Below are positions 12,551 through 16,681 of a stretch of 22,459 nt of DNA, piece by piece. This stretch comes from Candidatus Izemoplasmatales bacterium. Lineage in GTDB: Bacteria; Bacillota_I; Bacilli_A; Izemoplasmatales; Hujiaoplasmataceae. Where the stretch lies: the NCBI GenBank assembly GCA_050177605.1, contig JBFXGX010000028.1:1-22459 (forward strand), written 5' to 3'. The notes beneath the pieces were generated by a model, which saw only the letters and a program-made list of their open reading frames with translations, made no database searches and was not told the DNA's origin. The position numbers and the translations under genes are program-made. Numbering within the stretch: the stretch's first letter is position 1; each line of letters begins with the position of its first letter.

Positions 12551-13303
12551 TTATTTCTTTTCGATAACTCTTTTAAGGAACTCAGCAGTTCTTTTTGCCT
12601 TTGGTTGATGGAAAATCACTTCAGGCGATCCAGATTCAATAATTTCGCCTTTATCCATAACATATATTACATCAGCTACTTCTTCAGCAAAACTCATTTC
12701 ATGAGTCACAATCACCATTGTCATACCATTACTAGCCAAATTTCTCATAACATTGAGCACTTCTCCAACCATCTCTGGGTCAAGTGCACTGGTAGGTTCA
12801 TCAAATAGCATAATATCTGGTTTCATCACCAAACTTCTTGCTATCGCAATTCTTTGTTTTTGTCCGCCAGAAAGTTGATTTGGAAAATTATCAATTTTAT
12901 CCATAAGTCCAACTCTAGAAAGCATATCCTTAGCTAATTCTAGCCCTTCTGCTTCAGTATATTTTTTTAATTGCTTTGGCGCAACTAATAAATTATTTAA
13001 TACACTTAAATGGGGAAATAAGTGGAATCCTTGAAAAACCATTCCCATTTTTTGACGAAGTAAATTAATATCCGTTTGTTTACTCAAAAGGGAAATTCCT
13101 TCAAAAATGACATCACCCTTCGATGGCGTTTCAAGTAAGTTTAACGTTCTGAGTAATGTAGACTTTCCTGATCCAGATGGACCAATAAGTACAACCACTT
13201 GATTCTTATATACTTGAAGATTGACGTTTTTTAAAGCTTCAGTCCCATCAGAAAATGTTTTACTAATTTCTTTAACTTCAATAATAACTTCTTTATTTTG
13301 CAT
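12551..13303 (-). CDS. Polar amino-acid ABC transporter ATP-binding subunit (GlnQ/ArtM-like)
   Basis: Walker [10 protein letters not shown], signature LSGGQKQR, Walker B/D-loop [14 protein letters not shown]-loop VTHEM. Confidence 0.95.
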
Positions 13304-13973
13304 CAGCTTTTCCTAGTCTCCTTTCAAAATATTGCATCAATTTAGAGGTTGGGAAAGTCAGTAAGAAATAAAGCATTGCCGCAACCAAATAGCTTTCCAT
13401 AAATCCATAGGTTTCAGATTTTATCATCTGTGCTTCATAGGTTAATTCCGCAACACCTGAATACATCAAAATGGATGTCTCTTTTATTAAAGTCACAAAT
13501 TCGTTTCCAAGTGCAGGCAAGATATTTTTTATCGCTTGAGGGAAGATTATTTTCTTGAATGTCATAGCATAATTCATCCCTAAGCTGCGTGATGCTTCCC
13601 ATTGACCTTTATCAACAGAGTTAATACCCGCACGGATGACTTCGGCCATATAGGCACTTGAATTAATGAAGAGTGTAAACATTCCAGGAACAAATGGACT
13701 GATATCATAAGATCCACCAATAAGAATCACTGGAACATGAAACATACTATAAAAAATGATTAATTGAACAACGACCGGTGTTCCTCTTAATATTTCAACA
13801 TATGCACCAAAGACAAAACGAATGACTTTAAATTTAGTCATCCGCATCAGTGCAATACCTACTGCAAGAATGGTACCAAGGGCTACCGCAAACAGTGCTA
13901 AGACGACTGTTGTTGCTAGCCCTTGAAGTAACAATTTAATGTAGTAGGATTCTAGTAAGAAACTAAAATCCAT
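13293..13973 (-). CDS. Polar amino-acid ABC transporter permease
   Basis: [36 protein letters not shown] (EAA loop), [15 protein letters not shown]. Confidence 0.95.
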
Positions 13974-13978
13974 CTTGA

Positions 13979-14794
13979 CTATTCGCCTGTGTTTAGGTTA
14001 ACCATATCGGAAACGATTTGGTCAAGATCTCCAGAGGTAATCAGGTCGTTTAACACTTGGTTAATTGTCGCTAATAATTCAGCATTTCCTTTTTCTACAG
14101 CAACTGCACTACCGCCATCAGGTTCGCCAATTTCAAGATCAAGTATTTGAAGTCCAGACATATTTGCTAAATATCCTTCAGCAACTGGTTGTTCTAAAAG
14201 TACTGCTTCTACTAATCCTTGAGATAACTTTAACATTAAATCAGGAACGGCTTGTAGATATACTTTTTGAGCTAATGGGAAGTTTTCATCTGCTAAATCT
14301 TGTTGGATTGCGCCCATTTGTGCTCCAACTCTAATTGTAGCTTGATTGAGATCCTCAAGAGATGCAAATGAAGATGCAAGTGTATCCGTAGTCACAACGA
14401 CTTGGTGCGCTTCATAATATATCATCGAAAAATCAACGATTTCAGCTCTTTCATCTGTTGGTGTCATACCAGCAATAACGAAATCAACTTTTCCGCTTGT
14501 AAGGTCATCTAGTAAGTAATCAAATGCCTTATTTACAACTTGTAGGTTTTTACCTAAGGCTGCCGCAATTGCTTTACCAATTTCAATGTCAATACCAACG
14601 ATGGTTTGTTTTCCATCCACATTCATTGGCCATTCATAAGGCGCATAATCAGCACTTGTTCCCATAACGATATAATCATCATAAGATTCATCAATGACAT
14701 AGTTGTACACATTGCTTGCTGTACATCCACTTAAAAAGAACGTGAAACCTAAAATAACGACTAACAATAAACTACCTAAACTTTTTTTAAACAT
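13979..14794 (-). CDS. Polar amino-acid ABC transporter substrate-binding lipoprotein (family 3), probably arginine by T-box specifier
   Basis: Lipobox FLSGC; GTSADYAPYE, GIDIEI, GKVDFVIAGMTPTDERAEIVDFS. RBS aggag. Confidence 0.92.
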   Translation of the reverse strand: MFKKSLGSLLLVVILGFTFFLSGCTASNVYNYVIDESYDDYIVMGTSADYAPYEWPMNVDGKQTIVGIDIEIGKAIAAALGKNLQVVNKAFDYLLDDLTSGKVDFVIAGMTPTDERAEIVDFSMIYYEAHQVVVTTDTLASSFASLEDLNQATIRVGAQMGAIQQDLADENFPLAQKVYLQAVPDLMLKLSQGLVEAVLLEQPVAEGYLANMSGLQILDLEIGEPDGGSAVAVEKGNAELLATINQVLNDLITSGDLDQIVSDMVNLNTGE

Positions 14795-14836
14795 AATCTT
14801 CTCTCCTATATTTTATAATTTTTGTTTAAACTATAT

Positions 14837-14958
14837 AAAAAACGCCCTCGGCAAAAAAACTTTGCCAAGGACGGATTTTCCGCGGTACCACCTTGATTCT
14901 ATCCCGAAAAAGAAGGATAGCTCCTCGTAAAGTTAACGCCTGTATTACGTTTAAACCT
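14837..14958 (-). ncRNA. Second, partial T-box unit (3' strand of Stem II, Stem IIA/B, Stem III, antiterminator, terminator; no Stem I)
   Basis: T-box AAGGUGGUACCGCGG at 14894-14880 pairing with CCGUCCUU; GGCGUUA box; Stem III cuaucc...ggauag; terminator cguccuuggcaaa...uuugccgagggcg-UUUUUU. Confidence 0.88.
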
Positions 14959-14980
14959 ATGTAATCTGATGTCAAGAAAT

Positions 14981-15205
14981 AAAAAAATCCCTAGCATAAA
15001 TGCTAAGGACGATTGTACCGTGGTGCCACCTTAATTCTGGAAAAGTTCCAGCTCTTGACATAGTTAACGCCTATCTACGTTTAAACCTCAGAATACTTCG
15101 ATCTAAATGCTCCCAAGCACGTTCATCTTGATGTTTAACTTGTTTTCACCAACCACAAGCTCTCTACCTAAATCAACAAAGATTACTACTCTTGTTCATC
15201 GCTTT
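14981..15205 (-). ncRNA. T-box riboswitch, complete unit, specifier CGU (Arg)
   Basis: Stem I with GA motif GCGAUGA, AGUA, AGAGA and GGUGAAA boxes; specifier loop GAA-CGU-G (codon at 15121-15119); Stem II; GGCGUUA; Stem III cuggaa/uuccag; T-box AAGGUGGCACCACGG (15032-15018); terminator uccuuagcau-uu-augcuaggga-U7. Confidence 0.93.
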
Positions 15206-15212
15206 GAGATAA

Positions 15213-15240
15213 ATTATACTTGTTTTTAAAAAAGATGCAA
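15213..15240 (-). promoter_or_regulatory. Sigma-A promoter of the T-box/ABC operon
   Basis: TTGCAT-16 bp-TATAAT ending about 8 nt before Stem I. Confidence 0.75.
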
Positions 15241-15252
15241 TAGAAAAAACAA

Positions 15253-15266
15253 TGAAAATGTTTTCA
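15253..15266. promoter_or_regulatory. cre-like palindrome upstream of the T-box promoter
   Basis: TGAAAATGTTTTCA, near-perfect palindrome, 12 bp upstream of the -35. Confidence 0.45.
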
Positions 15267-15320: not shown

Positions 15321-15350
15321 AAAAAAAAGTAAGGCAATGTATGCCTTACT
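15321..15350 (-). terminator. Intrinsic terminator after eam
   Basis: agtaaggca-atgta-tgccttact hairpin plus a T run on the minus strand, overlapping the stop codon. Confidence 0.85.
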
Positions 15351-16617
15351 GATGATAATGATCTTTAAGTTTCATTTTTAGGTCGACAGAAGGATGATTT
15401 TCATACCTAATCACTTCATTTTCCCAGGTCCGTAATGTAAAGTAGTCTTTCCCTCTGGACAGAATATAGTTTGGAAGGATTGGTGTTTTTCCTTTTCCTT
15501 TTGGTGCATTCACAATGTAATAAGGAATCGCAAGACCTGAGGTGTATCCTCTTAAATATTCCATAATTTCAATACCATCGTCGATGGATGTATTAAAATG
15601 AGTCGTTCCTCTCACCGTTTTTGCATGGAAGATATAATAGGGACGAACCCGTATTTTTAGAAGTTCTTGATTAAGACAACGCATAATATATTTATCGTTA
15701 TTTATCCCATTGAGCAAGACCGCTTGATTCCCTAACACAATTCCCGCGTTTGCAAGTTTTTCACATGCAAGTCTACTTTCATCAGTGACTTCCATTGGAT
15801 GATTAAAATGCGTGTTAAGGTAGACTGGGTGATATTTCTTGAGCATTGACACCAACTTATCTGTAATTCTCATCGGCATCGTAACTGGCGTTCTTGAGCC
15901 AATACGGATAATCTCAACATGAGGAATGCTTCTTAGTTCTTTTAATATCCACTCAAGATAAGCGTTTGCCATCGTTAATGGATCACCGCCAGTAATTAAA
16001 ACGTCCCTAATTTCGTTGTTTTCCCTTATGTAATCAATTGATTCCATGATTTTCGCTTTCGGACTAACTTTATCAACGTCGCCTATATTTCTTCTTCTTT
16101 GACAGTGCCTACAATACATTGCGCATTCATTTGTGACATTAATTATTAACCGATCAGGGTATCTTCTCGTGATAAATCCTGCGGGGTTGGTATATTCCTC
16201 TGCCATAGGATCTAATTCATGCATGAAATCATCAAGTTCCAAAAAGGAAGGAACAGATAGTAATTTAATTGGGTCCATCTGGTCATTTGGATGAATTAGG
16301 CTTAGATAATACGGTGATATAGCCCAGCGATACACTTTCGATACTTGTTTGATATCTTTCATTTCTTCTTCAGACAACGGTATAAATTTGGATAAAGTAT
16401 CTGCGTCTTTAATGCGGTTTCTTAATTGCCAGTGCCAATCGTTGAATTCTTCGTCACCAACGCCAAATGATTTCTTAATCTCATTTTGTCTTTGTTTAAT
16501 AAACGTTTGTTCTTCTCTTCCCTTCAAAATTGTAGGGCGGACGGTTAAATAGTCTTCTATTCTCCCTTTAAGTTCAAGAGCCCTTTCGATTGATATTTGT
16601 CTCTTGGATTTTTTCAT
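15346..16617 (-). CDS. eam: Glutamate 2,3-aminomutase (radical SAM/PLP, KamA family)
   Basis: CAMYCRHC radical-SAM motif; DPMAEEYTNPAGFITRRYPDRLIINVTNE; N-terminal ISIERALELK extension; YYIFHAK and YIVNAPKGKGK carry Lys/Asn where lysine 2,3-aminomutase has its two substrate-binding Asp. ATG at 16617 has RBS aaggagg. Confidence 0.88.
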   Translation of the reverse strand: MKKSKRQISIERALELKGRIEDYLTVRPTILKGREEQTFIKQRQNEIKKSFGVGDEEFNDWHWQLRNRIKDADTLSKFIPLSEEEMKDIKQVSKVYRWAISPYYLSLIHPNDQMDPIKLLSVPSFLELDDFMHELDPMAEEYTNPAGFITRRYPDRLIINVTNECAMYCRHCQRRRNIGDVDKVSPKAKIMESIDYIRENNEIRDVLITGGDPLTMANAYLEWILKELRSIPHVEIIRIGSRTPVTMPMRITDKLVSMLKKYHPVYLNTHFNHPMEVTDESRLACEKLANAGIVLGNQAVLLNGINNDKYIMRCLNQELLKIRVRPYYIFHAKTVRGTTHFNTSIDDGIEIMEYLRGYTSGLAIPYYIVNAPKGKGKTPILPNYILSRGKDYFTLRTWENEVIRYENHPSVDLKMKLKDHYHQ

Positions 16618-16653
16618 AACAACCTCCTTTATGATAATAATTTGATTAATTTT

Positions 16654-16681
16654 ATTATAGCACATCAGCAAGTTTGTTCAA
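16654..16681 (-). promoter_or_regulatory. Sigma-A promoter of eam (extended -10)
   Basis: TTGAAC-16 bp-TATAAT with TGn extension. Confidence 0.7.

Follow-up and report, generated by a model that had tools for sequence, protein, structure and literature searches.

Can a single tRNA-sensing arm serve two transcription decisions taken one after the other? The question is raised by a T-box leader on the minus strand of a 22,459-nucleotide (nt) contig of a Candidatus Izemoplasmatales bacterium (JBFXGX010000028.1, assembly GCA_050177605.1)—the whole of this stretch is referred to here as the window—in which one Stem I with an arginine (Arg) specifier is followed by two antiterminator/terminator modules. 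We read the leader as a partially tandem Arg T-box in which strand exchange, carried out by the linker and an orphan Stem II strand, hands the single Stem I from module 1 to module 2; we hold this to be probable, with confidence well short of firm. As an RNA structure, the strand exchange is well supported by comparison of related sequences and by folding models, and we further infer that Stem I, and with it the same tRNA, would be re-used for the second decision.

Anatomy of the leader

Unit 1 has the full architecture of a transcriptional T-box. The model RF00230 covers 15208..15002 over its full length (model positions 1-219) with 144.2 bits, against a gathering score of 93. When the stretch 14985..14864 is searched alone, the match runs from model position 96 to 219 only (47.4 bits, E 7e-10); it is 5'-truncated, comprising the Stem II 3' strand, the IIA/B element, Stem III and the antiterminator, with the Stem II 5' strand missing. 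The source genome (G000) encodes a tRNA-Arg(ACG) with discriminator G73 and an encoded CCA, and the UGGC bulge of T-box 1 matches the G73-CCA end of this tRNA. Both terminator-like hairpins overlap the 3' side of their respective antiterminators. The leader thus has the model score, the tRNA-matched specifier, the UGGN bulges and the mutually exclusive antiterminator and terminator that mark a T-box. It is not a full tandem, as unit 2 is without a Stem I and no second specifier loop is seen by eye; one specifier hairpin and two antiterminator/terminator sets, presumably on a single transcript, place it among the partially tandem T-boxes. The coordinates of its elements are collected in Table 1.

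Table 1. Elements of the Arg T-box leader and its surroundings, in window positions.
Feature	Position	Strand	Basis or remark
Unit 1, complete transcriptional T-box (Stem I, Stem II, IIA/B, Stem III, antiterminator)	15002..15208	minus	RF00230
Specifier codon CGU (Arg)	15119..15121	minus	alignment to RF00230; context GAA-CGU-G, 15124-15118
Only Stem II 5' strand, UUUAGAUC	15100..15107	minus	columns 2-9 of alignment A2; either 3' strand pairs with it equally well
Helix B 5' strand, GUAUUCUG	15089..15096	minus	in Stem II apical loop; proposed toehold
Unit-1 Stem II 3' strand, GGUUUAAA	15080..15087	minus	strand displaced in the proposed hand-off
Stem IIA/B pseudoknot element of unit 1	15060..15080	minus	F-box GCGUUA
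Helix A 5' strand, AUGUCAAGA	15053..15061	minus	overlaps purine string AAGAG 5' of Stem III(1)
T-box sequence 1, GGUGGCACCACG	15019..15030	minus	bulge UGGC
Terminator 1	14980..15010	minus	hairpin 15010-14987 plus U-tract
Helix A 3' strand, UCUUGACAU	14969..14977	minus	linker; 9/9 complementary
Helix B 3' strand, CAGAUUAC	14961..14968	minus	linker
Orphan Stem II 3' strand of unit 2, GGUUUAAA	14950..14957	minus	preceded by spacer AUA, 14960-14958
Unit 2	14864..14950	minus	IIA/B(2) 14950-14927, Stem III(2) 14920-14899, antiterminator 2; truncated RF00230 match
T-box sequence 2, GGUGGUACCGCG	14892-14881	minus	bulge UGGU
Terminator 2	14837..14873	minus	hairpin 14873-14843 plus U-tract
Probable leader promoter	15213..15240	minus	-35 TTGCAT 15240-15235, 16-nt spacer, -10 TATAAT 15218-15213; read by eye
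Amino-acid ABC transporter operon, putatively regulated by the leader	12551..14794	minus	Pfam SBP_bac_3, BPD_transp_1, ABC_tran; open reading frames
Substrate-binding lipoprotein gene	13979-14794	minus	polar amino-acid ABC transporter operon
Permease gene	13293-13973	minus	polar amino-acid ABC transporter operon
ATPase gene	12551-13303	minus	polar amino-acid ABC transporter operon

Unit 2 opens with a copy of part of unit 1: positions 14946-14958 equal 15076-15088 over 13 nt (100%), and 14919-14941 resemble 15050-15072 over 23 nt (78%). The short linker between the units is complementary to unit 1 in two adjoining blocks. An inverted repeat, 14969-14977 with 15053-15061, is complementary at 9/9 positions (helix A), and GUAUUCUG at 15096-15089 pairs with CAGAUUAC at 14968-14961 at 7/8 positions, with one U-U (helix B). 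Next to these, UUUAGAUC at 15107-15100 can pair with both copies of GGUUUAAA, at 15087-15080 and at 14957-14950. The minimum free energy (MFE) structure of the whole leader contains the proposed long-range helices, with a z-score of -3.0 and an energy as good in 0/100 shuffles. Chance was gauged on this leader by shuffling the 20-nt linker 14977-14958 1000 times: the MFE was as low in 7/1000, the duplex of helix B with the loop as good in 15/1000, that of helix A in 1/1000, and both duplexes together in 0/1000.

A first-pass annotation of this DNA, made by a model from the letters alone, had described one Stem I with two antiterminator/terminator modules, a unit 2 starting at a repeat of the Stem II 3' strand and IIA/B, linker blocks complementary to unit 1, and a second Stem II 3' strand able to pair with the sole 5' strand. 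The full and truncated RF00230 matches with the two terminator-like hairpins, the direct repeats together with the match from model position 96, and the pairings given above bear out all four descriptions, each at the positions that the annotation had given.

A third exact copy of GTTTAAAC lies at 14824-14831, between terminator 2, which it directly follows, and the ribosome-binding site some 20 nt further on; it could pair with 7/8 bases of the Stem II 5' strand. This copy is left out of the mechanism proposed below because it is not conserved in the related leaders L138, L003 and L113.

Relatives of the leader

An orthologue of the operon's binding protein occurs in 14/71 genomes of the family; at E <= 1e-70 it is found in no other family of the order (13/158 genomes). 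Alignment A1, built from 12 such orthologues, retrieved 80 metagenome and 78 genome loci, and the 800 nt upstream of the gene were scanned for T-box motifs in the best 15 of the 80 and the best 39 of the 78. Among these 54 loci, 21 have two motifs 105-160 nt apart, one has two motifs 243 nt apart, 11 have a single motif and 21 have none. The motif-scan loci, with four loci from a genome search added and three duplicates removed, give 22 distinct double leaders.

Twenty of the 22 are built like the window leader (type A), among them leaders of Acholeplasma laidlawii, A. granularum and Paracholeplasma vituli; the remaining two, L121 and L124, form type B and are described further below. The specifier is CGU in 21 leaders and CGA in L131, all of them CGN Arg codons, and both T-box bulges are UGGY in 22/22, which fits G73 of tRNA-Arg(ACG). 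The binding proteins of these loci share 53-83% identity with the query alignment (best segment). From F-box to T-box, module 1 measures 36-46 nt and module 2 37-53 nt; the difference between the modules of one leader is 0-15 nt, and at most 2 nt in 9 of the 20 listed. Judged by its sequence, the discriminator of module 2 looks competent.

Two partners for one Stem II strand

The pairing of the orphan strand of unit 2 and of the native strand of unit 1 with the single 5' strand was assessed on A2, a MAFFT alignment of 19 type A leaders, from which the type B leaders L121 and L124 and the leader L031 (near-identical to L113) were left out. The exchanged helix (A2 columns 2-9 with 192-199) is paired in 96.0% of 151 cells, with double-sided changes in 4/8 pairs and a covariation of 0.375; for the native unit-1 Stem II the values are 98.7%, 3/8 and 0.357. 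Neither covariation was reached in 500 shuffles (0/500 each), controls that overstate significance because the sequences are related. Helices slid out of register are paired in 12-62% of cells for the exchanged form and in 15-61% for the native form.

The two helices differ in detail at column 8, which is U-A in 10/19 leaders for the exchanged helix and U-G in 16/19 for the native one. An A lies directly 5' of the orphan strand in 16/19 leaders and before the native strand in 15/19, and the GAA on the 5' side is kept in 15/19. With this A and the 5' GAA both kept, the exchanged helix retains an S-turn-like internal loop.

A loop-linker helix that changes and stays paired

Directly before the orphan strand, the linker holds 7-10 nt of complementarity to the apical loop of Stem II, and both sides vary between lineages. 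Where the window leader (L001) sets GUAUUCUG in the loop against CAGAUUAC in the linker, L123 and L125 have UCUUGAG against CUCAAGA, L127 has GUUUGAG against CUCAAAC, L132 and L134 have UGAUGAG against CUCAUCA, and L113 has GUUUUGA against UCAAAAU; the pair types at variable positions include U-A, A-U, C-G and G-C. This helix B commonly extends 1-3 nt into the native Stem II 3' strand, and it therefore competes with native Stem II.

Loops pair best with their own linkers. The mean duplex energy of loop and linker is -8.6 kcal/mol for cognate and -5.6 kcal/mol for non-cognate combinations, and the cognate mean was matched in 0/20000 permutations (n=20; the same with 18 and 11 representatives). 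Adding the Stem II 5' strand brings the means to -13.5 and -8.1 kcal/mol. When the loop is scored against about 235 windows of 16 nt downstream of it, the top-ranking one lies immediately 5' of the orphan strand in 9/20 leaders.

These two tests do not depend on the structural alignment A6, which was made in a second step of modelling: MAFFT and a first covariance model, R1, left helix B out of register, and R1 gave way to R2, a model of the exchanged structure derived from four in-register leaders. It aligned 17/21 double loci (A6), while L016, L012, L035 and L131 missed E 1e-12. On A6, helix B is paired in 87.4% of 127 cells (67.1 +/- 2.6 shuffled), shows double changes in 8/8 pairs and has a covariation of 0.437 (0.125 shuffled; 0/500 as high), with slid controls at 30-47% paired; since A6 was fitted to the exchanged structure, these pair counts lean towards it.

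Helix B is the best-supported of the new helices, lies mostly in the loop and could form without opening Stem II. A pseudoknot between linker and loop might then simply tether module 2 near the Stem I-tRNA complex, with unit-1 Stem II intact and the orphan strand unpaired to the 5' strand; native Stem II is in fact predicted to be kept in four of the 19 leaders, named below. We consider such docking without displacement distinctly unlikely. The orphan strand is conserved, its covariation with the 5' strand matches that of the native strand, and its column-8 pair is the stronger one in 10/19 leaders; the overlap of helix B with the native 3' strand sets the helices in competition. An intact Stem II(1) would also leave IIA/B(2) without the coaxial Stem II that canonical architecture needs, according to the available portion of a 2020 review (PMC7583486).

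Nor does duplication by itself yield such a helix. A recent partial duplication that left complementarity behind, with no selected refolding, would automatically supply the 5' strand with a second 3' partner; the module identities leave the duplication undated, and one relative, L114, has a decaying module 2. Duplication creates direct repeats, however, and not the complementarity of helix B, which varies between lineages yet stays paired. The layout moreover spans binding-protein orthologues only 53-83% identical, and the Stem III and IIA/B loops differ between the modules within each leader. A neutral relic is for these reasons very improbable.

Energetics and folding order

The strand exchange as a structure is also favoured in single-sequence folding. 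When each of the 19 leaders is folded from Stem II to F-box 2, the MFE structure contains at least six of the eight exchanged pairs in 13. When each helix is forced in turn, the exchanged form is the more stable in 15/19, by 5.3 kcal/mol on average; these nearest-neighbour energies take no account of kinetics, of bound tRNA, or of the S-turn and the IIA/B pseudoknot.

For the window leader, MFE structures computed as the transcript lengthens place the switch between 3' ends 14976 and 14952. Up to 14976, native Stem II is predicted with 8/8 pairs. Helix A appears when the 3' end has reached 14968; at 14960 helix B appears and native Stem II is gone; and from 14952 the exchanged Stem II is present, lasting to terminator 2. 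The earlier suggestion that strand exchange packs module 1 as an insertion into Stem II stands as a structural claim, supported by covariation in 17-20 leaders and by these energies. Conservation of the loop-linker complementarity in homologues, which the same annotation had named as a test, is found as well: cognate pairs beat non-cognate ones, and all eight pairs show double changes on A6.

Helix A and other linker elements

In helix A the first nucleotides of the linker pair with the junction between IIA/B(1) and Stem III(1), a stretch that takes in the purine string 5' of Stem III. A strong helix A is present in 8/20 type A leaders (L001, L138, L003, L113/L031, L012, L034 and L131), with energies of -9.4 to -15.5 kcal/mol and sequences that differ among the leaders. 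The first-pass annotation had helix A closing module 1 and looked to covariation of all three helices in orthologous leaders. The exchanged Stem II and helix B do covary and helix A has a strong equivalent in these eight leaders, but it is not universal.

A different element, (G/A)GUA(C/U), stands directly after the terminator 1 U-tract in most Acholeplasma-clade leaders and in both type B leaders (L117, L120, L123, L125, L127, L129, L132-L134, L190, L191, L121, L124). By MFE it pairs with positions 5-9 (GUACC) of T-box 1 in 7/14 carriers; the T-box sequence being invariant, this pairing is beyond the reach of a covariation test. On these models, it is possible that helix A and the (G/A)GUA(C/U) motif close off module 1, occupy parts of discriminator 1 and so bring about a release step.

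The proposed hand-off

Taken together, the proposal is as follows. Unit 1 would decide at terminator 1 as usual, with uncharged tRNA-Arg held on Stem I and Stem II and its 3' end in antiterminator 1. Should RNA polymerase read through terminator 1, the linker would emerge, and in the clade of the window leader helix A would clamp the base of module 1. Helix B would then form, the Stem II loop serving the linker as its toehold, and the orphan strand would displace the unit-1 Stem II 3' strand by branch migration. The expected product is a longer Stem II with a GAA/xxA internal loop in mid-helix and module 1 looped out of its apex. This exchanged Stem II would lead straight into IIA/B(2), Stem III(2) and antiterminator 2, with a spacing similar to that of module 1, so that the same Stem I, and probably the same tRNA, would come to govern terminator 2. 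In the text available from the review PMC7583486, tRNA binding to a long Stem I does not require Stem II; the same tRNA could therefore stay bound during the exchange. If the proposal is true, leak would be expected to fall and the response to steepen, with no need of a second tRNA-binding arm.

A more far-reaching version, which would amount to an as yet undescribed riboswitch design, may be put forward tentatively, and we lean slightly against it: the sensor domain would be passed between expression platforms by programmed toehold strand displacement, the same bound tRNA would be read twice, and clamps would pry discriminator 1 off the tRNA 3' end and stow module 1 away as an insertion. In such a design the clamps would be helix A over the Stem III purine string in the window clade and (G/A)GUA(C/U) on the T-box 1 bulge in Acholeplasma.

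Several results weigh against the hand-off, beyond the limits already given for the shuffle controls, for A6 and for the energy model. Helix A is clade-specific and weak in most Acholeplasma-clade leaders. Helix B is weak in L003 and unconvincing in L012, where it reaches only -2.4 kcal/mol and all 19 non-cognate linkers score better. The MFE structure keeps native Stem II in 4/19 leaders (L003, L016, L012 and L035), and the forced-helix comparison likewise favours the native form in 4/19. RNAalifold selects native Stem II on the unfitted MAFFT alignment A2 and does not recover helix B; only A6, itself fitted to the exchanged structure, leads it to the exchanged Stem II with helix B. These opposite outcomes fit two mutually exclusive conserved conformers, although they are not independent proof of them. 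In the model, helix B also consumes the 3' half of the unit-1 S-turn (UGA) and a variable spacer takes its place, which makes tRNA docking uncertain. Concerted evolution of the two Stem II 3' strands is possible too, since the module identities show no single ancient duplication; it would not explain helix B.

Layout variants and probable loss of module 2

The modules of these leaders are 0.74 identical across species for module 1 and 0.68 for module 2; between modules, identity is 0.685 between species and 0.74 within a leader. These values do not show a single ancient duplication and leave the duplication undated.

In the type B leaders (L121:733-1130 and L124:742-1125), module 2 starts at the Stem III 3' strand and has no IIA/B(2), and a linker hairpin ahead of module 2 covaries between the two. 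In the MFE structure the orphan Stem III 3' strand pairs with the unit-1 Stem III 5' strand (n=2, no double changes), so that a Stem III strand exchange in L121 and L124 is only suggestive. It is possible that both breakpoints, in the Stem II loop and in the Stem III loop, gave rise to a hand-off of this kind.

The metagenomic relative L039:600-1215 (50% binding-protein identity) carries a full tandem with two CGU Stem I arms ahead of the same operon; single, partial (of two kinds) and full tandem leaders hence coexist in this gene family. Two single-module leaders of the same genus, L004 and L005, still carry a relic linker and orphan strand downstream of their sole terminator, and in L114 F-box 2 and T-box 2 of the decaying module 2 are degenerate. 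The relics of L004 and L005 pair poorly with Stem II (-3.9 and -5.5 kcal/mol, against the cognate mean of -13.5 kcal/mol). By sequence, these relics and the decay in L114 point to repeated loss of module 2.

The relics bear on a further explanation, in which module 2 acts as an independent second check or reset. It would have its own discriminator or be a plain attenuator, and the pairing would dismantle the sensor, evict the tRNA, or stabilise or process the 5' end of the mRNA. Module 2 does have a complete discriminator, the extended helix could be a nuclease or stability element, and single-module relatives retain the relic orphan strand after their only terminator. Those relics have lost complementarity, however, and IIA/B always directly follows the orphan strand, at a module-1-like distance from F-box to T-box—an arrangement needless for a stand-alone discriminator. 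The A before the orphan strand (16/19) and the 5' GAA (15/19) moreover preserve the S-turn-like loop. We judge a second check or reset unlikely, and continue to favour a hand-off of Stem I.

A wider search, confined to the exact pattern of two T-box motifs about 110-150 nt apart, did not find the layout elsewhere: the pattern occurs in 6/401 genomes of a class/phylum sample, every one of them this Arg leader, in 0/201 genomes of the Bacillales-type order around Bacillus cereus and in 0/4 named genomes. At about 78855-79100 (plus strand) of contig C1 of G000, two identical T-box motif contexts lie 227 nt apart with a run of N between them; to judge from the sequence, this may be an assembly repeat or another tandem.

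Locus and promoters

The leader sits between the transporter operon and a radical-SAM aminomutase-like gene that ends in a terminator of its own (15350-15328). This upstream gene, at 15346-16671, encodes a radical-SAM enzyme with a lysine-2,3-aminomutase C-terminal domain. The probable leader promoter was missed by the promoter scan because its -35 matches at only 3/6 positions. A -10 a few bases before Stem I is kept among the 22 distinct double leaders, as an exact TATAAT in 20 and as TATACT in two (L031, L113).

No linker of the 22 holds a promoter-like site comparable to this upstream TATAAT. The linkers of the window leader and L138 do contain a perfect -35 hexamer (TTGACA, 14976-14971 in the window), from which an internal promoter might drive unit 2 on its own. 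The promoter scan finds no linker site, though, and reading by eye gave no acceptable -10 at 16-18 nt downstream; the hexamer belongs to helix A, reads TTGATT in L113, is changed in L003 and is absent from Acholeplasma-clade linkers. With no scored site, no -10 partner and a hexamer that is not conserved, we rejected the internal promoter, which is hardly credible; the first-pass annotation had listed it among the findings that would overturn its proposal, and neither the promoter scan nor the orthologue comparison supports it.

A 14-bp palindrome, TGAAAACATTTTCA, lies at 15253-15266, about 12 nt upstream of the leader -35. The same or a near-identical palindrome stands in the same place in L002-L006, L008, L011, L014-L016 and L114, and L007 has no clear copy. 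By its sequence it looks like a transcription-factor operator. Within the window it occurs 6 times with at most 2 mismatches against 4.5 expected, which is chance level. No Arg_repressor_C domain was found in G000 (89% complete), and the palindrome cannot for that reason be named an ARG box.

Significance and comparison with known systems

The window leader and its 21 relatives offer a concrete mechanism, with covariation and named nucleotides, for partially tandem T-boxes, and they make an open question directly testable; one relative is a cultivable organism, Acholeplasma laidlawii. If the mechanism is true, an RNA sensor would be serially re-usable by programmed refolding, an economical means of squaring terminator leak with a single ligand-binding domain. 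Nature would in that case also offer an example of toehold strand displacement that rebuilds an aptamer instead of destroying it, with a bearing on riboswitch folding theory and on the design of synthetic RNA circuits. Full-text literature searches returned no proposal of a T-box hand-off or strand exchange, although a sketch in Vitreschak 2008 or Gutierrez-Preciado 2009 (MMBR) is possible; these two older papers aside, the statement of the first-pass annotation that it knew of no such description agrees with the searches.

Compared with a canonical transcriptional T-box (RF00230; for example of the B. subtilis tyrS type; PMC7583486), unit 1 lacks nothing: its long Stem I carries a specifier loop and its Stem II the GAA, and the F-box of IIA/B, Stem III, the UGGN bulge of the T-box, and the antiterminator and terminator are all present. 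What differs is the second set of IIA/B, Stem III, antiterminator and terminator, which comes without its own Stem I or Stem II 5' strand.

Fully tandem T-boxes, of which thrZ of B. subtilis is an example, likewise decide on termination twice in succession, each time for the same amino acid. For trp, thrS, ilv-leu and ABC transporter genes, series of two or three complete leaders are described (PMC12452182, available portion). In these tandems each unit binds its own tRNA independently, whereas here there is one Stem I and one specifier.

The leader is closest to the partially tandem T-boxes, a class with one specifier hairpin and two antiterminator/terminator sets. Vitreschak and co-workers reportedly described T-boxes with duplicated terminator-antiterminator elements in 2008 (RNA 14:717). 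Partially tandem T-boxes are known to the 2020 review, whose available portion calls their mode of action unknown (PMC7583486). Complete tandems only are treated in the accessible parts of PMC12452182 and PMC9413887, the TBDB paper names tandem T-boxes as future work (PMC7778990), and Wels et al. (PMC2494555) do not mention them. What the present analysis adds to the class is that the orphan Stem II 3' strand is conserved and that loop and linker share a covarying helix, together with the type with a Stem III breakpoint and the proposed refolding mechanism.

A departure from the usual ratio of aptamer to platform is also found in the tandem glycine riboswitch, in which two aptamers share one expression platform (PMC12452182, in the part available). 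The likeness lies in a non-standard ratio that shapes the response; the difference is that here one sensor would use two platforms serially by refolding, and not by cooperative ligand binding.

Co-transcriptional strand displacement operates in the expression platforms of the ZTP and other riboswitches. There, as is proposed for the leader described here, an existing helix is invaded by a strand from further downstream, which starts at an unpaired toehold next to that helix. To our knowledge, known riboswitch displacement executes a single decision by destroying the aptamer; here, in contrast, the proposed displacement would restore the sensor domain so that it can decide again.

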